Shown piece by piece: positions 3,654 to 56,608 of a DNA stretch of 64,000 bases (the first letter of the stretch is position 1; each line of letters opens with the position of its first letter). The stretch is taken from IMG/VR virus record IMGVR_UViG_3300025096_003363, positions 1 through 64,000 of that record; one strand, given 5' to 3'. This DNA is from a virus. The notes under the pieces were generated by a model. The model saw only the letters and a list, made by a program, of their open reading frames with translations. It made no database searches and was not told the origin of the DNA. The translations under genes and the position numbers were made by a program.

Positions 3654-5192
3654 TTAGAAGTACACTGACTGAGAAGCCGGAGTAAACGCAGTACCGAGTC
3701 CCTGAACAATAACTACATGGTAGTAGAGATCAGCCCCGAAGATGTTGTCAACAACACCATAACGAGTAAGCAAGCCAACACGTGGCGCGAAGTCGTTAGG
3801 ACCAATAGTTCTCTGAACCATGACAGGAATGTAAGGACAATAAATGATACCAGTGTCGTAGAACTCAGGACCTTTGTAACCAAGCAACGCATACTCGATG
3901 TTAGCAGTACCATTTGAGTCATACTGATTAACATTAGGATTGTTGTAGTAACTAGAGTTCTGAACCTCTGTTCTGGTATCACGGTAAACGTTGAATCTCC
4001 CACCGAGTGAACCAACCTTTGCAATACCAACAGGCTGCGTGTTAACATCACCCTGCACAGGCACCCACTGAAATTCAGGGAGCATCTCGAGGATGGCGCA
4101 AACACGAGGAGTAGCAACAACAAAGTTAGCTGCTCCACGTCTGTTACGTACGGCGATACGATTGGCTTCGATGATAAGACGTTGATAGAAGTCCCTATTA
4201 CGCTCGACCATCCAACGACCATCTGCAGAAGCAGGTGACCAGAGGGAGTAGCCTTTGTTCAGTCCAGCTCCGAGAGCCGACTGGATCATTCTCATGAGCA
4301 TTTCACGGTCGATCTCAGCCTGAATCTCATACGACATAGCGTTTGTGATCTCGGCGTCAATATCGATACCATTCATGTTCTTAAGATCTTGCTCAAGTTC
4401 GACAGACCAACGTGCGCCAAGACGGCGTGTGCCGGCCTCAACTGCTGTTTTCTCGAACTTAACCTCGACCTGAGGAATGTTACCAGTAATCTCGAAAGCG
4501 GAAAGAATCTGAGCGACACCTTTATCTTGCGCAGTGAAGGCCCAAGTTGAACCATCAGGAGTACCACTCAACCGTGTCGAAGACGTACCGGTGAAGCGGG
4601 TATCAAGAAGTTGGTATCCAAGTTCATCACCCGGAAGACCGGCAGCGCCATCATATATCTTGTTATCTCCTGCAATCGTTGGATGCGAACCAGGCGTAAA
4701 TCCTGGACCTGTAGTACCAGATCCAATAGGATTGGTAGTAGCATCACCAGTACCATCAGTACCGGCTCCAAGATAAGTAGACTCGTAAGCATAACGAAGA
4801 GCAAAAGCAAGTCCAACAGGACCTGACATAGGCTGGACACCAACGATTTCGTTAGTGATAAGCTCAGGGAACGTACGACGAATCATCGGGATAAGCACTT
4901 TAGGAAGACGAGCGTCACCAGGAGCATAATTATCATTCGACCCGGTAGTACCAGGCGGAGAGAATATGTTCGAAGTAGAAGCACCGCTACCGAAGGCTCC
5001 ACCGTGACCGGCGGAGTTTGCTTCTTCAATACACCACTTTTCCTGGTTCTCAAGAAGAATGGCGGTATTTAAACGGGTATGATCGTCTTCAATGGGCTTA
5101 ACACTATCAGAAGAATATTCAAGAACAGGTGCCCACTTCTCAAGAAGTGTATCTGCTCTATCTCTATCTATAAATGACTGTGGTTTGTTCAT
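3654..5192 (-). CDS. gp23: Major capsid protein (T4 gp23-like)
   Basis: LLEKWAPVL, ILLENQ, GVQPMSGPVGLAFALR, ELEQDLKNMNGIDIDAE, YCPYIP and TRYG motifs; putative maturation site IEE/A at residue 57. Confidence 0.97.
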   Translation of the reverse strand: MNKPQSFIDRDRADTLLEKWAPVLEYSSDSVKPIEDDHTRLNTAILLENQEKWCIEEANSAGHGGAFGSGASTSNIFSPPGTTGSNDNYAPGDARLPKVLIPMIRRTFPELITNEIVGVQPMSGPVGLAFALRYAYESTYLGAGTDGTGDATTNPIGSGTTGPGFTPGSHPTIAGDNKIYDGAAGLPGDELGYQLLDTRFTGTSSTRLSGTPDGSTWAFTAQDKGVAQILSAFEITGNIPQVEVKFEKTAVEAGTRRLGARWSVELEQDLKNMNGIDIDAEITNAMSYEIQAEIDREMLMRMIQSALGAGLNKGYSLWSPASADGRWMVERNRDFYQRLIIEANRIAVRNRRGAANFVVATPRVCAILEMLPEFQWVPVQGDVNTQPVGIAKVGSLGGRFNVYRDTRTEVQNSSYYNNPNVNQYDSNGTANIEYALLGYKGPEFYDTGIIYCPYIPVMVQRTIGPNDFAPRVGLLTRYGVVDNIFGADLYYHVVIVQGLGTAFTPASQSVYF

Positions 5193-5278: not shown

Positions 5279-6133
5279 TTATTTGTGAGTTCTTTTAAGT
5301 TCCTCCAAGTATGGATTAGATGAGTTCTCTTTTTTCTTCTCTGAAATCTTTGGTCGTGGGGCATCAGTTTTGACCTTTCGCTGTGTAAATGCCTCCTCTT
5401 TAATAACACTAAGTCTTTCTTTTTCCTTTTTATCAAAAAGCCTTTCTGTGTAATCAAAATTTTCTTCAATAAATTTTGGTGACTTATCATGAAGAATCTT
5501 TATCATATACTCTTTCTTTTTACCTGTTAAATGTGCAGTTTTAGACTCTAATACAAGATCTGCTTTTGTTTTAGTATATGCTTCTTTAAGAAGGTTATTT
5601 TCTTTTTTAAGCGCTGTAACTGTTTGTGACAACTCATCAATCTGTGTCTTACCGTCGACAACCGCCTCTTTAACAGACTCTGCCATAAGAGAAGAATCAA
5701 CAGCAAGAACCTTTCTTAAATTAGCAAGAACTTCACGTGATGTTCTGTTTTTGGTTGCTTCTTCAATAGCCTGTGTAGGTACAGCTTCATTAATATACTC
5801 TTCTAGGTAATCTGAAATACTTTCAACTAAAGTCGACTTGAACTTACTAGCTCTACCATTAAGCTCGCTTTCATAACGCTTTACAACAGTAATAAGCTTA
5901 TTGGCGTTGTTATGATCAACAGCTTCAACCACTCTTTTAAGTTTATTTGTATGATCTTTATCAATTGCGCCTACTAACTCCTCAAGTTTTTCAGCATAGA
6001 GCTCATCTTGATTCGTTAAAGCAGCTTCAACTGATAATTGAATTTTTTCTTCAATAGCAGTTTCAATTTCCTTAACAGACTCTTCTGTTAATACCTCTGC
6101 TGCTTGTTCTGGTAATGCTTTTTCGTTCTTCAT
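5279..6133 (-). CDS. gp22: Prohead core scaffold protein (gp22-like)
   Basis: Glu/Lys-rich coiled coil with the 'ISDYLEEYI' motif, located between the protease and capsid genes. Confidence 0.88.
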   Translation of the reverse strand: MKNEKALPEQAAEVLTEESVKEIETAIEEKIQLSVEAALTNQDELYAEKLEELVGAIDKDHTNKLKRVVEAVDHNNANKLITVVKRYESELNGRASKFKSTLVESISDYLEEYINEAVPTQAIEEATKNRTSREVLANLRKVLAVDSSLMAESVKEAVVDGKTQIDELSQTVTALKKENNLLKEAYTKTKADLVLESKTAHLTGKKKEYMIKILHDKSPKFIEENFDYTERLFDKKEKERLSVIKEEAFTQRKVKTDAPRPKISEKKKENSSNPYLEELKRTHK

Positions 6134-6293: not shown

Positions 6294-6959
6294 TTATATA
6301 GATTTAATAAAGCTAAGGATTCTGTCACGTAAAAAGGTATCAATCTCCTTTTTAGGGAGCTTTTCTAGTGATTTTTCGAAATTTTCGTATACTTCGGTGT
6401 ATTTATCATTACCAACAAGCACCCATTGCTTTGATTCTAAGATTCCATTTACAAATGCCTTGGGGTAGGATGGGTCTGCAACACAGTCAATAGCTACAAG
6501 TTTCATATTTTTTACAGTACTATGATCGCTACTCTCTTCAAGGGTTCCTAATGCGCGTGAAGACATACCAACTTTTACACCGTCGTTAATAAGAGATCTA
6601 ACTATTTGACCGCAGGGTGTAGATAAAACTTTTGATTTACCATAAAACACATTCCCGTCTTGCTTTAATTCGGTTACCATGTGGCAGGCTCTTTCTAGAT
6701 CAACATCTGCTGTAGTTGGGTGATTTAGCTCTCCCATTGCGCGACCAGGCTTGATCATCTCTTCAACATATCGTGTTGCTTCTCTCTCTAACTCGTCTAA
6801 TGGATAAAGCCGGTTGTTTTTGTTTACACCCTCAGCCATCATATAAGGGCCTTTTATATATAAATTGGAAGGGGAGTTTCTATCTACTTCTTCTTCAATG
6901 TATTCGAACTCATCGTTCACATCGGGTTTTTCCACAACCAAGTTAAGTTTTAACGCCAT
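6294..6959 (-). CDS. gp21: Prohead protease (gp21-like)
   Basis: NKNNRLYP, GELNHP, GMSSRALG and DCVADPS motifs. Confidence 0.95.
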   Translation of the reverse strand: MALKLNLVVEKPDVNDEFEYIEEEVDRNSPSNLYIKGPYMMAEGVNKNNRLYPLDELEREATRYVEEMIKPGRAMGELNHPTTADVDLERACHMVTELKQDGNVFYGKSKVLSTPCGQIVRSLINDGVKVGMSSRALGTLEESSDHSTVKNMKLVAIDCVADPSYPKAFVNGILESKQWVLVGNDKYTEVYENFEKSLEKLPKKEIDTFLRDRILSFIKSI

Positions 6960-10835: not shown

Positions 10836-10843
10836 TATTTATA
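10836..10843 (-). promoter_or_regulatory. gp55-type late promoter TATAAATA (portal); representative of ~16 TAAATA sites
   Basis: Exact T4 late consensus 6 nt before the ATG. Confidence 0.8.
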
Positions 10844-36005: not shown

Positions 36006-36662
36006 ATGGATCGAACTAAAGTTACTAAATTACCGACGGCTAATGGTAATATGCCTCTAACAGGTGTAGAAAAGGAAGAAATTATTGAAGATGCAGCAAA
36101 GGCTTATGAGAAGTACCTAGATGCGCTTAGAATTGACTGGCGAAACGATCCTAATAGCGATAATACACCTAAAAGAGTAGCAAAAGCTTTTGTAACTGAC
36201 TTAGCTGCTGGTTGTTATAACGAACTTCCAAATGTTACAGCATTTCCATCAGATGGATACGATGGAATGGTGTTTCAAGGTGGTATTCCTGTTAAGTCAT
36301 TTTGTTCACACCACCATTTACCGTTTTCAGGTAGAGCTCATGTAGCTTATATACCGTCTCCGAGCGGAAAGGTCATTGGATTGAGTAAATTAAACAGAAT
36401 TGTTGAGCATTATGCAAGAAGACCGCAGATTCAAGAAGGTTTAACCATGCAGATTCATAAAGCTATTGATGAAATTTGTGAAGGTAATAAAGGAGTTGCT
36501 GTTATGATTTCTGCTACTCATACATGTGCTTGTCTAAGGGGAATTAAGCACGATGGGTGTGAAATGAAGACTAGTCGACTTAGTAGTGACTTTTTAGATG
36601 ATATTGCTACTAGAAATGAGTTTTATCAGTTTGTGTCTGACTGGAGAGGTCAATGTATCTAA
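36006..36662 (+). CDS. folE: GTP cyclohydrolase I
   Basis: [32 protein letters not shown] and HTCACLRG motifs. Confidence 0.96.
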
Positions 36663-37099
36663 TAAGATGCCTCTATTTCTTCATCAGCGATGTTTTCTTG
36701 ACTAACATCAATAAGAGCACCTAGCTCTTTTTCAATAAAATCCTTACTTACTAAGATTTTAAATAGGTTTGTAGATCTATCGCCTACTGAAAAGGGTATA
36801 TCTTTAAATTCCTTGTTGCCGATTTTAAGATCGAAGTTAACTACAGGTCTTTCTTCAGTATTACCAGCACCGACATTAATAACAATAGTATCTACCTTAT
36901 CCTTTATAAGATGTTTGTTGTTAACTGTCTTAAAAAGCACTTTATTACCCTGCACTTGTATATCTTCCCCATGAATAACGTTAAATGCACCGTTACCAGA
37001 GTCGAGTTTTGATGGAATTTTACCAATACCATCTACATCAAAGAACTCGATGAGTCCTAAGACTTGTTTTTCTAAAAAGAACCGGTTAAAATTTTTCAT
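36659..37099 (-). CDS. Retropepsin-like protease (RimK-associated 'ATP-dependent Zn protease'/RimB-like)
   Basis: KLDSG catalytic motif, EERPVV and GDRS..FKILV. Confidence 0.75.
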
Positions 37100-37123
37100 A
37101 GCAACTGCTATTTATGATTATGG

Positions 37124-37471
37124 TCAAGTGTTTTCAATATCCTCGTACCCTACATTAAATTGATCCACTACTTCAACTTCATCAACTACCTCTTCACCTA
37201 TATCTACCGCTACAGAGATAGTAGCACCAGCAGCTGTAGCTAATTCAGCTATAGCACCAATTGCCTGAGCGGCTATAACCGCTATATCTGGTGTCACGTT
37301 ACCACACTCTTCCGATTCAACCTCAGGGACCGGCATTTCATCACCCGTAATAAGAGGTCCCACGGCTCCAATAGAAGCAGTTTGTGCACCATGACCTAGA
37401 CCTATACTCTCCTGTACCTTATGGTAGGCGTGTTCTAGAAGTTGTTTCTCTTTACGCTTCTCATCTCTCAT
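37124..37471 (-). CDS. Hypothetical acidic late protein
   Basis: 115 aa; TAAATA 5 nt upstream. Confidence 0.65.
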   Translation of the reverse strand: MRDEKRKEKQLLEHAYHKVQESIGLGHGAQTASIGAVGPLITGDEMPVPEVESEECGNVTPDIAVIAAQAIGAIAELATAAGATISVAVDIGEEVVDEVEVVDQFNVGYEDIENT

Positions 37472-37479
37472 ACTATTAT

Positions 37480-38019
37480 TTATGCTAGTATGGCCTTTAT
37501 TTGATCTCTATCCTCAATGGATATTTCCTCGGGTACAAAATAATCTAACGCTTCGTCAATATCTTGCTGTATTATTTGTCTTGTCTCACTACCAGATATA
37601 CCTTCCTCCTGCATTGGTATCTTTACCACATTCACATAAGGGTACTTTTCAACATTATCCTGAAAATACTTGTATCGTTTAACATCCGCATCCTTTTCAC
37701 CCGCACCAACTAACAATGTTTTATCTAAATTTGCATCAGCGAAGTCGTAAACAGCCTTTACAGGGTTAGGTACATACACAACCTCTACATTCTTATCAAA
37801 ATATCTTGAGTATATCTTCCATATTTGTTCAGACTGCTCAGGTGTAATACCTTCACGCTCCTTACCACCAATAAATACGACACCTCTATCAGCATCATCA
37901 AGCAAATACCTTAAAGCATTAAAGTGACCCTTTGTAGGCGGTTTAAATCCACCGGGAAGCAGAGCGATTCGCTCAACTCTTGTCTCCATATCTTCAAAAT
38001 ATTCTATAAATGTCCTCAT
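37480..38019 (-). CDS. HxGH nucleotidyltransferase (cytidylyltransferase/NadD/CoaD-like)
   Basis: PGGFKPPTKGH and ISGSETR motifs. Confidence 0.85.
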   Translation of the reverse strand: MRTFIEYFEDMETRVERIALLPGGFKPPTKGHFNALRYLLDDADRGVVFIGGKEREGITPEQSEQIWKIYSRYFDKNVEVVYVPNPVKAVYDFADANLDKTLLVGAGEKDADVKRYKYFQDNVEKYPYVNVVKIPMQEEGISGSETRQIIQQDIDEALDYFVPEEISIEDRDQIKAILA

Positions 38020-39224
38020 GACCCGGGTTTATCTTTTTGAAAGTTAGCTGAACTAAAATCTAATCTGTTAACAAGCTTAACAGCATTACCATCTCTATCA
38101 ACCGCTACATATCCCTCTGGAGAAGTAACTCTCAACTTACCTTCACCCTCGTCGATAAAGTGTTTAGTGTTATAAACAGCATTATTGTACTTGTTAATAA
38201 AGATTTGCTTAGCCTGTGATAATAAACTACTAACCTTAAACAGATTAACTATGTCATCCTTTTGAGCTTGGAACTGAGCTGTTTTTTGCTTAAGAGTTTC
38301 TTCTAATCTTTGCTTTCCACGCTTAGATTTTCTCTTATCAACCTCTTTATTAATTCTAGTAGTATACCATTCAATAAAGTTTCTATAAGACTCTTCTGGA
38401 TCATTTAAGAACTTACCTTCTCGAATCTCCGTATTAATATAAGGGTTGAGAAGATCAGAAGGTAAGTCCTTGTAATCTATTTTGATTGAATCAGCGGTTT
38501 TTATTAAGTCTCTAACCTGCTTTACTTCATCTTTTGTTAAATTTACAACGCCTGTATCGTCTTTAAAGTAGGCATCATCAAACCAAACACCTGGAACCTG
38601 CTTCAACCGGTTAACTTTAGCACCAAACGCCGCCGGGCTGTCTAAATCGTTATATTCTGTATGGAATATGATACCAAACACGGAGTTAGCTATCTTTTTA
38701 CCTAGATCTGAATTAGCCTCTACTGCATATTTGATCGTATTAGGTTGAAATGTGTAATGAACTACACCATCTATGTTCTCTTTCTTAACCGATGAAGAAT
38801 CAAACATAAAATCACCCTGCATTATGTTCTTAATACCTAACTTAGGTAGATATTTTAAAGCCTTCTTAAGTTTATCCGCTAAACCAGGGGCATGCCCGTG
38901 ATTAACTTCAACATCTTGGTCATTATAGTTAATTTTAGGCTCTTTATTAAAGACAGCCTTAGTACCAACAAAGAATTTACCGGTATCAGGGTGCTTTCCA
39001 GCAAAGATAGCAGGGGCTCCATCCCATTTTACCGTAGTACCGATCTTTCTTTTACTCTTTCCTTGTAAATGGCCGAGTAAATTAGTTAAAAAGCCCCTAG
39101 CCTGGTCATAACCACCCTTACCTCTTGTAAGGATCAGTTCTTCTAAGTGTGTAAGGTGTGTATTAGCCTTAGCTTCCTCGATTAACTCTAAGTAATGTTC
39201 GAAATATAGTTTAAAGTTTTTCAT
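38016..39224 (-). CDS. ATP-dependent ligase-superfamily protein (covalent nucleotidyltransferase motifs)
   Basis: Motif I TVKWDG, motif III MQGDF, motif IV PEGYV and motif V VKLV. Confidence 0.65.
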   Translation of the reverse strand: MKNFKLYFEHYLELIEEAKANTHLTHLEELILTRGKGGYDQARGFLTNLLGHLQGKSKRKIGTTVKWDGAPAIFAGKHPDTGKFFVGTKAVFNKEPKINYNDQDVEVNHGHAPGLADKLKKALKYLPKLGIKNIMQGDFMFDSSSVKKENIDGVVHYTFQPNTIKYAVEANSDLGKKIANSVFGIIFHTEYNDLDSPAAFGAKVNRLKQVPGVWFDDAYFKDDTGVVNLTKDEVKQVRDLIKTADSIKIDYKDLPSDLLNPYINTEIREGKFLNDPEESYRNFIEWYTTRINKEVDKRKSKRGKQRLEETLKQKTAQFQAQKDDIVNLFKVSSLLSQAKQIFINKYNNAVYNTKHFIDEGEGKLRVTSPEGYVAVDRDGNAVKLVNRLDFSSANFQKDKPGS

Positions 39225-40592
39225 TTATTTTATTGTTAAGTTATAACCTCCGCGTCCCCCACCTGTATTAGGTGAAATAGTAATACTGTCACCTAATTCG
39301 AATAATTTCTGTATAGAGCTGGTTGCATATTCCCTGTAACCCTTTCCCTTAAAGGGGCCTATTGTTACCATGTTAAAGTTATCCTTATTAAAGAATAAAA
39401 AGTAATTAAAGCCTTGACCCTTTTCTTCTTCTTCTTTAAAATATTCTGCTATTTGAAACCCAGCAGCTATTTTACGGCCCTTTAACTCCGGATCACCAGC
39501 CGCATCTAAAAAGGAATCAATAATACTAACTGCACTATCTGGTTCAGATGAAAATTCCGACAAACCAGCTACTAATTTTTCACGTGGTGCTTTAGCAAAA
39601 AAACTATTTGTAATTATAGCCTCACCAGCATCTCTCATTTTAAGTTCTTCTCTTTGATCAGCTAAATATTTTGTTACATCAATACCTTTACTATCTTTTA
39701 TATTCTCAAAATAATCTCTACGCCGTACATCCTTTTCAACCAACTTTAACTTAGTCTCTAAATCGTAACTACTATTATCAATAACACTAATTACCCGGTC
39801 AACAACGCGTTGTTGTGCTGGAGCTACATTAAATTCGTAATCTTTTATAGCACTAAACACAGTCTGAATTATATTTTCATCTATATTGGCTTCTTTTAAT
39901 TGAAGTTTTGCAAATTTATTAAAGTTACGTATTAAACCTAACGTTTTTCCCTTACCCGGTCTACCTGCACCTGACTTGACCTCAACCAACGATCCATCTG
40001 GTAGTGTTATATCACCCTCTTTTGGATTTTTACCCTCTGAAAACAATGTTAAAACCGCCTCCCCGGGCCCAACTCCAACTGCCCCCTCTTCAAAAGTTAT
40101 CTGTGACATTAATTCGACAGCCTTTCTATTTGTTACATGCTTAAGATCGTATTTAGCTCCTAGTTTTTCAATTACACGTAAAAAATTAGCTGTTCCCTTA
40201 TTTAGCGCTTGTTGTAAATCTGATAATCTGTTTGAATTTTTTAAACGAGTTAATCTTTCTACTTCATCATAAAATTCTTCCCTAATACCCACGTTATCTA
40301 ATTGTATAGACTTAGCATATATGTCATTTATTCGAACACTTAAATTATAGATAGCCGAAGGGCTATCCCAACCCCCTGATTCAACCCAGTCGTTAATTAC
40401 ACCAATTGATGTATTCTGTTTACCTAATCTTAATAACTTTCTAGCTTCGTCTTGATCTATTTCAACCTCTTTAATATTACCATCGTCAAACTCTATAGTT
40501 ACTTTTGCTTCATCTAGTACATGAAGATGTTCACGAGGTGGAATATTACCACGTACCCGCTTTTTATAAACGTCTTCTAATGACCATTGCAT
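39225..40592 (-). CDS. Putative PD-(D/E)xK nuclease-fold protein
   Basis: GPGE...GDI..PDGSLVEVK motif. Confidence 0.55.
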   Translation of the reverse strand: MQWSLEDVYKKRVRGNIPPREHLHVLDEAKVTIEFDDGNIKEVEIDQDEARKLLRLGKQNTSIGVINDWVESGGWDSPSAIYNLSVRINDIYAKSIQLDNVGIREEFYDEVERLTRLKNSNRLSDLQQALNKGTANFLRVIEKLGAKYDLKHVTNRKAVELMSQITFEEGAVGVGPGEAVLTLFSEGKNPKEGDITLPDGSLVEVKSGAGRPGKGKTLGLIRNFNKFAKLQLKEANIDENIIQTVFSAIKDYEFNVAPAQQRVVDRVISVIDNSSYDLETKLKLVEKDVRRRDYFENIKDSKGIDVTKYLADQREELKMRDAGEAIITNSFFAKAPREKLVAGLSEFSSEPDSAVSIIDSFLDAAGDPELKGRKIAAGFQIAEYFKEEEEKGQGFNYFLFFNKDNFNMVTIGPFKGKGYREYATSSIQKLFELGDSITISPNTGGGRGGYNLTIK

Positions 40593-40594
40593 GA

Positions 40595-40939
40595 TTAGTG
40601 TGCGTCTACAGTTTCAAGCTCTTGTTCAACGGTCTCGTCAGAAAATTCAACTAACCTTTCTATTGTTTCAATAACCTTTCTAGGCTGTGTCCTCCCAAAC
40701 TCTTTGTTGACCTGTGCAGCAATGTTTATATCTTGCATATTAGGTGCATATATAAAGGCATTAGTCAACAGCTCAGCAACATATATTTCACCTTCTGGAG
40801 AAATGCCTGTTGGCGCTGGGGGAATATCTGCAACATCAGTAGCATCCGCTTCGACATCGACGTTAACGTCAACCTCCTCTACTTCATCCTGCTCAGAATA
40901 AAGCTCTTTATATTGTTCAAATAGTTTTAATGTTTTCAT
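40595..40939 (-). CDS. Hypothetical acidic protein, putative internal head protein
   Basis: MKTLKLFEQY N-terminus; Glu/Asp-rich. Confidence 0.6.
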   Translation of the reverse strand: MKTLKLFEQYKELYSEQDEVEEVDVNVDVEADATDVADIPPAPTGISPEGEIYVAELLTNAFIYAPNMQDINIAAQVNKEFGRTQPRKVIETIERLVEFSDETVEQELETVDAH

Positions 40940-40941
40940 AA

Positions 40942-41349
40942 TTATTGTTCTGTGGGTTCTGTGGCTTTATCTCTTATTGCTTGTTTTAACTCTTCTGTCT
41001 TCTTTTGAAAAACTGATACAGCGTCTTTTGCTACTCTCTGTCTTTCCTTTACAGCTTTTTTAGCGCCTCTAGCACCGGAAAACATACCACCTTGATTTGC
41101 TAATCTGTTAACCTCTCTATCAACATCATATTTCTCAGGCCCGGTTTGAATTTCTTGATCTTCCACAGGAATAAGCGGAACCTCTATACCACCAACACTA
41201 TCCTCAAAAGCTAAAAAATTCTCAAAAGGCGATCCAACACCAGATATTGCAAAACGTCTCATTACTTTACCATTAACATCCTTCAACTCTACAGTATATT
41301 TGTCCTCACCTGGTCGATTCTCTTCTAACAGTTTAAGAAACTTATTCAT
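40942..41349 (-). CDS. Hypothetical late protein, putative internal head protein
   Basis: MNKFLKLLEE N-terminus; TAAATA 5 nt upstream. Confidence 0.6.
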   Translation of the reverse strand: MNKFLKLLEENRPGEDKYTVELKDVNGKVMRRFAISGVGSPFENFLAFEDSVGGIEVPLIPVEDQEIQTGPEKYDVDREVNRLANQGGMFSGARGAKKAVKERQRVAKDAVSVFQKKTEELKQAIRDKATEPTEQ

Positions 41350-41357
41350 GTATATAT

Positions 41358-41870
41358 TTATGGAAGTAGTGAGAGTTTTATATTCACATTAGCAAGAAAC
41401 TCTTTCTCTAAGTGCTTTAGATCATATCTTTTAAGAAAGTTCCGAAAGTTTCTAAAAGACAATTGAGCCTCAGTAGGGCTTTTCCATACTTCATAGTCCT
41501 GTCCTTCAATAAATTCCCTAAATCCTACCTCATCATACTTAATTATACTCGGCAGCGTGTTAAAAATACGCCTTACAAGCTGATGTTCAATGACTTTTTT
41601 ATCCACCTTGTAATAAAACAGCTTTTTATGCTCTTTATCTATTTTAACAGCATGTATTATCTGCTTTAGTATAAAATGAATACCAAGCTTGTTTTTATCA
41701 TGTCGATTTAACCTTAAATCGTTTTCAACGAGGTGATAATTATACTCATTAAAGGATTTAGTTAAGAAATAATTAAGATTCATTATAGTCTTATGAATCT
41801 TCGGTACATAGAGATGGCTACTTTCGTCGTTTACCGATTCTAAGGTTGATGATTCCATTATAGTAGTCAT
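41358..41870 (-). CDS. Hypothetical protein (start uncertain)
   Basis: Up to 170 aa; fills the gap between its neighbours. Confidence 0.6.
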   Translation of the reverse strand: MTTIMESSTLESVNDESSHLYVPKIHKTIMNLNYFLTKSFNEYNYHLVENDLRLNRHDKNKLGIHFILKQIIHAVKIDKEHKKLFYYKVDKKVIEHQLVRRIFNTLPSIIKYDEVGFREFIEGQDYEVWKSPTEAQLSFRNFRNFLKRYDLKHLEKEFLANVNIKLSLLP

Positions 41871-42228
41871 CTCTTAACAATACTTCTTCTTTAAATTGTA
41901 ATCTAGCTTCGTAATAACTCAACTCCCACTTAGAATCACACCATCTAAGGATTTCGAACTTAAAATTACCTTTACCGAGTACACTTATATGCTCATTAAG
42001 CTGATTTGACGAAGAAGTGTACCCCTTCCAGTCAGTTTCGACTTCATACCGTCGTTTATTCTTCTTTCCCTTTAAAGGCGGTCGCTTTCTAATACACTTA
42101 CACTGCTTTTTACCAATATACTTCTTATCATTAGTAAGATTTGTTATCTTATAAATGAAACCGTAAGGTAAGTCCGTCCCTTCCTCGAGGATCCCCTCCC
42201 AATGTCCTAAATCACTCACTCTATCCAA
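41818..42228 (-). CDS. Stand-alone GIY-YIG endonuclease-like protein (Seg-like)
   Basis: GFIYKITN...KYIGKK, FKFEIL, YYE and YYN motifs. Confidence 0.8.
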   Translation of the reverse strand: MDRVSDLGHWEGILEEGTDLPYGFIYKITNLTNDKKYIGKKQCKCIRKRPPLKGKKNKRRYEVETDWKGYTSSSNQLNEHISVLGKGNFKFEILRWCDSKWELSYYEARLQFKEEVLLRDDYYNGIINLRIGKRRK

Positions 42229-42889
42229 ATACGCTTAACCACTCATCCGGTACTTTTGATAAATCTAATACCTTAGCCTGTATATTATCGTCTCCTAGTT
42301 CAACAGCTTTATGTAATCTATGATTACCATCTAATATCATATCATATTTACCACTATTCTTTGTAATAATAATAGGATACTTCAAATCAGCTTTCATAGC
42401 CCTATCATATGTAGACTTTACTTGCTCCGGAGTCTTATTAGGCTTGTGTCGTGTATGTATGTCTAAATGAGCGACACCCTCTACTGGGATAGAGATAACA
42501 GGCGATTCTAATTCCGCTAGCTTACTCTCTACATCCTGCATCGTGATGGTAAGCTTACCATCAGACCATGTGGTATCTTCGTACCCCGGGTGAGTATCCT
42601 CTTCTCCCTCTTCGCCAGTTAAAAACACCCCATCTATACCATCAGTTTCTTTCTTTTTCTTCTTTTTCTTACCAGTAGAACCTTTACGTGTTTGAACCTT
42701 ACCCTTACCCAACACTTTAGGCACTCTTGCATCACCTGGTGCGTATGTATCGCCGGAGTCAATAGTATCAGGTGGACTATAGACTGCATGTCCAGATGGG
42801 CCGTCACCAAATACACCACCAGCACCAGCTGTCATCGACTCTTTTAACATCTTAAAAAATAACTGTTCAAATCTACCACTTGATTCCAT
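42221..42889 (-). CDS. ParB/Srx-like domain protein with an N-terminal capsid-arm-like segment and a poly-Lys tract
   Basis: ADLKYPIII...ILDGNHRLHKA is ParB-like. Residues 18-60 match gp23 residues 58-100. TATAAATA lies upstream. Confidence 0.8.
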   Translation of the reverse strand: MESSGRFEQLFFKMLKESMTAGAGGVFGDGPSGHAVYSPPDTIDSGDTYAPGDARVPKVLGKGKVQTRKGSTGKKKKKKKETDGIDGVFLTGEEGEEDTHPGYEDTTWSDGKLTITMQDVESKLAELESPVISIPVEGVAHLDIHTRHKPNKTPEQVKSTYDRAMKADLKYPIIITKNSGKYDMILDGNHRLHKAVELGDDNIQAKVLDLSKVPDEWLSVFG

Positions 42890-42913
42890 TGTAACTATAT
42901 TTATAATAGTATT

Positions 42914-43309
42914 GTGGAATTGCTAAAGAAGTATATGGAAGACATTGGGCAAGATCTTGTACTAAATGATCTCAACCTTAAAGAACAACAGCAAAGACTA
43001 CCTGCTCGTAAGCATTTTTGGGTAGGAAGACTAATAGAAGCTAAGATTAAACGCAATAAGTTTTTTGCGCAAAAGAGTAAGCTTAAAAAAGACCTAGTTA
43101 AAAAGGTAATTACCGATTCGCCTGTACGCATCAATCAAGCTTCCGCGGAATCCGCTGCTGAAAAGTATGAATCTGTGGTTAAGCTTAATAATAGCATAAA
43201 AGAACAAGATACTATTATAGAATATCTCGAAAAGGTGGAAAAGATTCTTGGTAACATGCATTGGGAAATTAAAAATGTTATCGATATGAATAAAATGGAG
43301 CAGTATTAA
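42914..43309 (+). CDS. uvsY: Recombination mediator (UvsY-like)
   Basis: Size, helical character, the 'IIEYLEKVEK..WEIKNVID' motif and position directly before uvsW. Confidence 0.75.
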   Translation: MELLKKYMEDIGQDLVLNDLNLKEQQQRLPARKHFWVGRLIEAKIKRNKFFAQKSKLKKDLVKKVITDSPVRINQASAESAAEKYESVVKLNNSIKEQDTIIEYLEKVEKILGNMHWEIKNVIDMNKMEQY

Positions 43310-48026: not shown

Positions 48027-48040
48027 ACTATATAAATAGC

Positions 48041-56591: not shown

Positions 56592-56608
56592 TTAATATAT
56601 TTATATCT

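Follow-up and report, generated by a model that had tools for sequence, protein, structure and literature searches.

Why would a T4-like phage place a copy of the N-terminal arm of its own major capsid protein at the front of a ParB-like protein? The question is raised by a gene, here called the tag gene, in a 64,000-nt stretch of DNA (the window) that comprises positions 1 to 64,000 of IMG/VR record IMGVR_UViG_3300025096_003363. This record (98.8 kb, ~47% complete) represents an uncultured marine T4-like phage. The product of the tag open reading frame (ORF) begins with a leader, whose middle part resembles the segment that, in the major capsid protein gp23, follows the predicted cleavage site, and ends in a "cargo" domain with a predicted ParB/Srx fold. 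An initial annotation of this DNA, made from its letters alone, had drawn attention to the match and had proposed that the arm anchors a packaged protein in the capsid. With a probability of roughly 0.5, we favor the reading that the tag protein is a late internal protein that is targeted to the prohead, is processed by the gp21-type protease and enters through the inward-facing contacts of gp23, its leader being a putative partial paralogue of the flexible N-terminal region of gp23.

The leader and the gp23 arm align without gaps. BLASTP matches tag residues 14-60 to gp23 residues 54-100 (26 of 47 identical, E = 3e-14), and the narrower comparison of tag residues 18-60 with gp23 residues 58-100 contains 25 identities among 43 positions. 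The Smith-Waterman score is 140, versus 26-35 (standard deviation 5) for composition-matched shuffles, which corresponds to a z of ~20. When the profile of one family is compared with that of the other, the match has a probability of 99% and an E value of 6e-18 and is confined to the same columns. The arm segment occurs in the record exactly twice, once in the tag ORF and once in gp23. The tag product itself is no capsid protein, as it shares no more than residues 54-100 of gp23 and gives no Pfam Gp23 match. Directly before both matches lies an L/I-x-E sequence (L15-K-E17 followed by S in the tag, I55-E-E57 followed by A in gp23), and the homology starts four residues upstream of the gp23 cleavage site.

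Relatives indicate how far the copy extends. In a complete genome of 224 kb (G019), the arm of the tag is followed by IGRRTFPE, and the alignment of this tag with its own gp23 continues through PKIL..IRRTFPE. Forms of the module that lie at the C-terminus of a protein end with VQRRVFPNM or similar. Thus, the copied stretch begins shortly ahead of the cleavage site and reaches as far as the folded body of the capsid protein. The VQTR sequence of the tag may correspond to M-I-R-R of gp23, and the poly-Lys sequence is probably a DNA-binding insertion that interrupts the arm copy.

The tag arms also tend to follow the gp23 of their own genomes. The gp23 sequences of this large marine clade (3080 matches, some of them from Tara samples) have a hypervariable mature N-arm with insertions and deletions, whereas the propeptide and the sequence IPMIRRTFPEL are nearly invariant (A4, P0121-P0240). 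Some arm variants are common to tags and gp23 proteins, including a nine-residue insert (GPNAAAQNI) and a GGSLGT.AQGGTIFNP type. In one genome (G020), a unique long variant, in which GDAR becomes GD(F/Y)R, is found in both proteins. Across 12 tag/gp23 pairs, tag arms score higher against their own gp23 arm than against those of other genomes (permutation p = 4.5e-5). With 10 nonredundant pairs, p is 1.3e-4, or 1.2e-3 after normalization of rows and columns, and 6 of these 10 tags match their cognate gp23 arm best. At identical residues, codons are identical in 92 of 223 cases, versus 90.5 expected. Because this agreement is at the level of chance, recent gene conversion is ruled out as the source of the cognate similarity, and the match is kept at the level of protein. 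Pooled ratios of nonsynonymous to synonymous substitution rates (dN/dS) among tags are lowest for residues 61-97 (0.21), followed by the helix (0.30) and the arm (0.40, with 0.52 for its middle part), although these figures are rough and the pairs behind them are not independent.

Alignments of homologues delimit the leader as a self-contained module of ~97 residues that consists of a helix, L-x-E, the arm, a GK-VQTR motif, a Lys tract and an acidic linker. In both of the alignments used, one of 32 relatives and a second set of 26, M1, E2, S3, F7, E8 and F11 are invariant. L15 is invariant among the 32 relatives, and L15 and E17 are each conserved in at least 90% of the set of 26. Q66, T67 and R68 are likewise invariant among the 32 relatives; in the set of 26, R68 alone reaches 90%, and other relatives have IGRRTFPE or VQRRVFPNM in the VQTR region. 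The linker residues T91, G92, E93, E94, E96 and E97 are conserved in at least 90%, and E(N/D)EE linkers of the same kind connect cargo modules in relatives. The variable middle of the arm can be deleted in homologues. Residues 1-17, which have the length (10-19 residues) and the (L/I)-x-E ending of an N-terminal propeptide, are predicted to form an amphipathic helix that resembles a T4 capsid-targeting sequence and ends in a putative gp21 site. An AlphaFold2 model (56 relatives) has a helix at residues 6-20, a predicted local distance difference test score (pLDDT) of <50 at residues 19-101 and a pLDDT of >90 at residues 105-222; the leader arm is therefore predicted to be disordered.

When 1.84 billion representative proteins were searched with a profile, the family proved to comprise at least 219 clusters. 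Architectures were counted in the best 150 of these 219 clusters. Most (121 of 150) are stand-alone proteins with a median length of 84 aa and no cargo; 113 of the 121 have [LIVMF]xE within the first 30 aa, and 114 have a K/R run. The order found in the tag ORF, with an N-terminal module and then cargo, is seen in 16 of the 150 clusters. In nine others, a domain stands in front and the module is at the C-terminus, with L-x-E between cargo and arm. The other four comprise two internal placements, one protein of 1,330 aa and one gp23 fragment. The basic family member is a cargo-less 84-aa protein (helix, L-x-E, arm and basic tail), and the tag ORF is a cargo-capturing derivative of it. Because L-x-E splits cargo from arm in the C-terminal forms, and because most members have no cargo, the module presumably has a function in its own right, at the stage of the precursor. 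The same two facts speak against the arm being primarily a permanent anchor for cargo.

Where cargo is present, it is diverse. Among 152 module-bearing proteins, at least seven cargo types follow one leader. Two subtypes of the ParB/Srx domain are among them, as are a Cys-rich peptide and several small basic modules that contain Cys; some proteins combine cargo types. The ParB/Srx domain also occurs without the leader. When the model of tag residues 105-222 is submitted to Foldseek, every top PDB match has the ParB/Srx fold (sulfiredoxin, CTP-binding ParB N-domains, Noc, SbnI and the serine kinase SerK), with a probability of ~1 and a best E value of 2e-3. In the DGNHR motif, D187, G188 and R191 are invariant among 56 relatives, and N189 and H190 are conserved in at least 90%. 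The cargo thus shares with the ParB/Srx superfamily a predicted fold and a DGxHR-type motif, and comparison with PHROG gives weak ParB-like matches. However, the domain measures ~118 aa, has nothing after it and lacks the helix-turn-helix and dimerization domains of a canonical ParB, and Pfam ParBc does not match the tag ORF at E values up to 0.1. Therefore, the cargo is classified as a stand-alone ParB/Srx domain. Pfam searches gave no match for the tag ORF, for the leader or for ten cargo variants. No close kin was found among cultured phages by megablast, and tblastn gave weak ParB-like matches only.

A conserved leader with diverse cargo is found at one locus. Six records hold both a tag gene and gp23; each has one tag gene per genome, and in five of the six the tag gene and gp23 are 36-39 kb apart. 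The uvsY-like neighbor was read beside the tag gene in three distant genomes (G014, G019 and G020). A T4-type late-promoter motif, [AT]ATAAATA, precedes every tag gene whose upstream region is long enough to be read (60 of 60). It ends 5-8 nt before the ATG, in most genes at a fixed 8 nt, which is also the distance of TATAAATA in this phage. In the window, the motif occurs six times, versus 14 expected by chance, and four of the six occurrences are directly before genes on the same strand. The spacing implies that these late mRNAs would be leaderless or nearly so. The window also codes for a gp55-like late sigma factor and for a T4-type portal, and the promoter motif suggests that the tag gene may be expressed late.

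Most of what the initial annotation had described, or had proposed to look for, is borne out by these data. The 25/43 match withstood the shuffling check, both matches do begin right after I/L-x-E, the Lys7 tract (residues 74-80) and acidic linker (81-100) are in place, the ParB/Srx-like assignment of the cargo agrees with pLDDT and Foldseek, and the late-promoter motif recurs in all related tag genes that could be read. Homologues keep the arm, which is under purifying selection, co-varies with the gp23 of each genome (p ~1e-4) and is fused to different cargo.

Table 1. Positions of the tag gene, its parts and the features discussed. Coordinates refer to the window, except in the last line.
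Feature	Position (nt)	Strand	Details
Whole tag gene	42221-42889	-	222 aa; leader, residues 1-100; ParB/Srx-like cargo, residues 105-222
Helix and predicted gp21 site	42839-42889	-	Residues 1-17; L15-K16-E17 at nt 42839-42847
Copy of gp23 mature N-arm	42710-42838	-	Residues 18-60; variable middle between two conserved motifs
GK-VQTR motif and K7 tract	42650-42709	-	Residues 61-80; K7 at residues 74-80
Acidic linker	42590-42649	-	Residues 81-100; conserved (F/Y)LTGEExEE
Predicted ParB/Srx-fold cargo domain	42224-42577	-	Residues 105-222; DGNHR motif
T4-type late-promoter motif TATAAATA	42898-42905	-	Ends 8 nt before the tag ATG
Other (A/T)ATAAATA loci before genes	10836-10843, 48031-48038, 56598-56605		These and 42898-42905 end 2-8 nt before late-gene start codons
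gp23 major capsid protein	3654-5192	-	512 aa; Pfam Gp23, 7e-88
gp23 predicted cleavage motif	5022-5030	-	I55-E56-E57
gp23 mature N-arm	4893-5021	-	Residues 58-100
gp21-type prohead serine protease	6294-6959	-	Peptidase_S77 at 6297-6959, E 6.9e-32; presumed processing enzyme
Candidate gp22 scaffold	5279-6133	-	From position between gp21 and gp23 only
SegE-like GIY-YIG homing endonuclease	41818-42228	-	2e-30; overlaps 3' end of tag gene
uvsY-like gene	42914-43309	+	Divergent neighbor; locus marker
ime09 gene 61.1	JN202312.1, 18092-18256	-	Loci L182/L183

A similar arrangement was found in T4-type phages. When the genome of phage ime09 was queried with its own gp23 arm, the match was gene 61.1, which is annotated as a "hypothetical" protein of 54 aa. 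The product begins with MKTYKEFIKE, a T4 capsid-targeting sequence, continues with a segment like the mature N-arm of gp23 and ends with a KKKK/acidic tail; it matches its own gp23 with an E value of 4e-9 (BLASTP). A search of ime09 with back-translated MKTY(Q/K)EFI, allowing no mismatches, found one other gene start, that of a gene annotated as internal protein Ip4. Homologues of gp61.1 are present in 1432 phage records, and certain pipelines annotate them as "major capsid domain-containing." T4 and RB49 have a short form. In KP27, VH7D, Konradin, 65.2, PM2 and AS-yj, the [L/I/V]-x-E, arm and basic tail stand behind a domain of ~110 aa. Reciprocal matches between gp61.1 and the gp23 arm hold across these T4-like phages. 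PHROG lists both the short (phrog_1823) and the long (phrog_2086) forms as "unknown function." In the papers that were found, gp61.1 is mentioned only in gene lists, with nothing on its role, and it is absent from the supplements of T4 and SPN3US head proteomics. The possibility that T4 61.2 and 61.1 are the two halves of a KP27-type long protein was also considered and was rejected, as there is no similarity.

The gp61.1 proteins share with the marine tag a leader, [L/I/V]-x-E, a copy of the arm of their own gp23 and a basic tail. However, they reside at another locus (next to the primase gene in Straboviridae) and are without cargo. A hidden Markov model (HMM) of the marine module does not match gp61.1 homologues significantly (E = 0.2), and the module matches no PHROG. 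The two groups could reflect common descent or independent copying from each gp23, as only the architecture appears to be common to them. In the Prochlorococcus phage P-SSM2, a second copy of the gp23 arm was not detected; thus, the feature is either not universal or has diverged past detection.

Known properties of T4 heads suggest how such a leader might work. In T4, residues 66-105 of gp23* are disordered and lie inside the unexpanded head, where they "probably" contact the scaffolding core; after expansion they are outside, as an arm and N-fist (PMC9546572). T4 internal proteins carry capsid-targeting sequences of 10-19 residues that bind the prohead core and are removed by gp21, and in T-even phages diverse internal proteins stand behind a conserved leader (PMC9026906, PMC3012670). 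We propose that the tag leader would act as a gp23 N-terminus without a body during prohead formation. It would make the contact of the gp23 N-terminal region, most likely with the gp22/gp21 core, and would thereby be built into the interior of the prohead. Then, gp21 would cleave after L15-K-E17, as it is predicted to cleave gp23 after I55-E-E57. The Lys tract would bind incoming DNA, and the ParB/Srx cargo would remain in the head and probably exit with the DNA. A gp21-type protease that could perform the cleavage is encoded by the same phage. That the protein is packaged and is matured by the capsid protease, as the initial annotation had proposed, fits this Peptidase_S77 gene and the conservation of L-x-E; both steps are what we infer from the sequences.

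Like the T4 internal proteins IPI, IPII, IPIII and Alt, the tag has a short amphipathic segment with an L/I-x-E ending; in T4 this leader is cleaved by gp21 and directs cargo into the prohead core, and the cargo is diverse, often basic and ejected with the DNA (PMC3012670, PMC9026906). The tag differs in that its leader has ~97 residues, of which ~80 would stay on the predicted product, and in that this leader contains a Lys tract and an arm copy that co-varies with gp23. Most of its relatives also lack cargo, and for the tag, packaging and cleavage are predicted. The tag locus may be recombination-prone and would in this respect resemble the locus of T-even phages at which internal proteins vary. 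A GIY-YIG motif is found downstream of 27 of 48 related tag genes, and the SegE-like endonuclease may drive the exchange of cargo. In the metagenome proteins P0014, P0017, P0020, P0021 and P0025, the same small cargo modules are joined via E(N/D)EE behind other N-termini, such as MPFKSE(K/E)QRR; these strings suggest a wider beads-on-a-string pool of small basic domains.

Several points weigh against the proposal that the leader loads the tag protein into the prohead. A 10-residue targeting sequence is enough in T4, and the need for an arm copy is left unexplained. The presence of family members in proheads or virions, and their cleavage, are themselves predictions. The match to the cognate gp23 is not strict, being poor in G009, G003, G014, G015 and G017. 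Nine cultured T4-like phages, whose arms vary little and of which one (Asfd_1) had an arm that was not properly extracted, give no significant cognate signal (p = 0.13). A cognate signal could also arise in proteins that have no partner in common, if gene conversion took place long ago and purifying selection then acted. After the predicted cleavage, the arm would stay on the tag cargo, which would fit a role in the mature head as well. Moreover, the contact between the gp23 N-terminal region and the scaffold is itself inferred in the T4 literature (PMC9546572). Among the poorly matched genomes, G009 (L072/L069) has a tag arm of the type found in G008 (L074/L068), with GPNAAAQNI, and a different type of gp23 arm; this might be a tolerated pair or the result of a recent exchange.

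A role in the mature head is the basis of the alternative that survives best, although we consider it unlikely. The cleaved tag, with a gp23*-like N-terminus, would insert its arm into N-arm acceptor sites of the expanded shell, for example, vacant sites surrounding the portal of a phage that lacks a gp24 vertex paralogue, and would tether the Lys tract, DNA and cargo to the wall. The retention of the arm on the predicted mature product, with its gp23*-like new N-terminus, is consistent with this idea, and co-variation with the cognate gp23 is expected if the arm binds the body of gp23. A relative whose genome is 93% complete was found to have a single gp23-family gene, and thus its pentons and portal-adjacent sites would be made of gp23 alone. 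DarA and Hdf of phage P1 are examples of packaged proteins that bind both DNA and the inner surface of the capsid; they are released with the DNA (PMC12810830). The tag would resemble them as a packaged protein at the inner capsid wall and DNA, but the P1 anchor is a helical bundle at penton-hexon junctions and is unrelated in sequence. However, the T4 arm and N-fist come to lie between capsomers on the outside of the shell, and each gp23 brings its own. Few sites would therefore be free, and internal cargo would have to thread its arm outward. The L-x-E between cargo and arm in C-terminal-module forms, and the predominance of cargo-less members, also disfavor docking to the shell.

The cargo-less 84-aa form, which dominates the family, and the conservation of the arrangement from T4-type phages to the marine clade might instead point to a regulator of assembly or maturation. 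A small decoy of the gp23 N-terminal region could compete as a gp21 substrate or for an exosite, or could compete for the scaffold or arm contact, and might tune the timing of cleavage, expansion or head size; fusions to cargo would then be secondary. The start of the copy four residues before the cleavage site suits such a function, as do the T4 head-length mutations A66D, A94V and G97S, which lie in the gp23 66-105 segment (PMC9546572). A precedent of a kind is SaPI1 CpmB, which is reported to mimic the scaffold of phage 80alpha and to compete for the contact between capsid and scaffold (PMC5644958). Both cases involve a copied piece of an assembly partner; in SaPI1 it is a parasite that copies the scaffold end and changes capsid size, whereas here a phage copies the arm of its own capsid protein. 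A packaged protein would better account for the poly-basic tail, which is conserved, and for cargo having been captured repeatedly, and a phenotype for T4 61.1 was not found in the literature. We regard a purely regulatory role as doubtful, and as harder to sustain than docking. Finally, it is extremely improbable that the leader is a recombination scar with no role, left when recombination promoted by the homing endonuclease joined a 5' piece of gene 23 to a ParB-like gene: a SegE-like endonuclease gene does abut the tag gene in a mosaic locus, but the size of the family, a leader dN/dS below 1 throughout, residues retained although synonymous sites are saturated, L-x-E kept family-wide, the promoter motif in 60 of 60 genes and co-variation with the cognate gp23 mean that conservation, selection and co-variation exclude a functionless scar.

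Other genes surround the locus. An ORF of 170 aa (41358-41870, minus strand) overlaps the end of the GIY-YIG gene by ~50 nt and has no family match. On the same strand, positions 36659-41349 hold five consecutive late genes whose N-termini resemble T4 capsid-targeting sequences (for example, MNKFLKLLEE), among them genes for a DUF6267 protein and a Zn-protease-like protein. This run of genes may be a cluster of packaged payloads. No family match was obtained for the candidate gp22.

Part of this system is familiar, since T4 is known to place exchangeable packaged cargo behind a conserved, cleavable leader. What appears to be new is a leader that contains a copy of the capsid arm and co-evolves with the capsid protein, together with a large family of cargo-less mini-proteins and the match between T4 gp61.1 and gp23. 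The initial annotation had stated that no equivalent was described. This holds for the arm copy in the leader, which appears to be undescribed, but gp61.1 has the same architecture, and the T-even internal proteins and P1 DarA and Hdf are comparable systems. A broader hypothesis, to which we give tentative and somewhat less than even credence, is that T4-like phages, including T4 itself (gp61.1), encode a small mimic of the gp23 arm. Mimic and arm would co-evolve because they share one lineage-specific binding site, either on the scaffold core or on the shell. Such a mimic would be a general route for the loading of basic DNA-binding peptides and, by fusion, of arbitrary cargo, and it would serve as a natural probe of the contact between gp23 and scaffold that sets head geometry.

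In T4-type phages, the contact of gp23 with the scaffold, the sizing of the head and the trigger of maturation have been inferred rather than seen, and the gp23 segment involved is disordered in the unexpanded head. A separately encoded copy of this segment offers a handle on the contact, one that could be altered in T4 (61.1) without touching the essential capsid gene. The tag family would also extend the logic of capsid targeting to a large clade of uncultured marine phages, in which the tag locus would be a site for the exchange of injected cargo, possibly including anti-defense proteins such as the ParB/Srx domain. In addition, the family suggests longer natural leaders with which proteins might be loaded into T4-type capsids.

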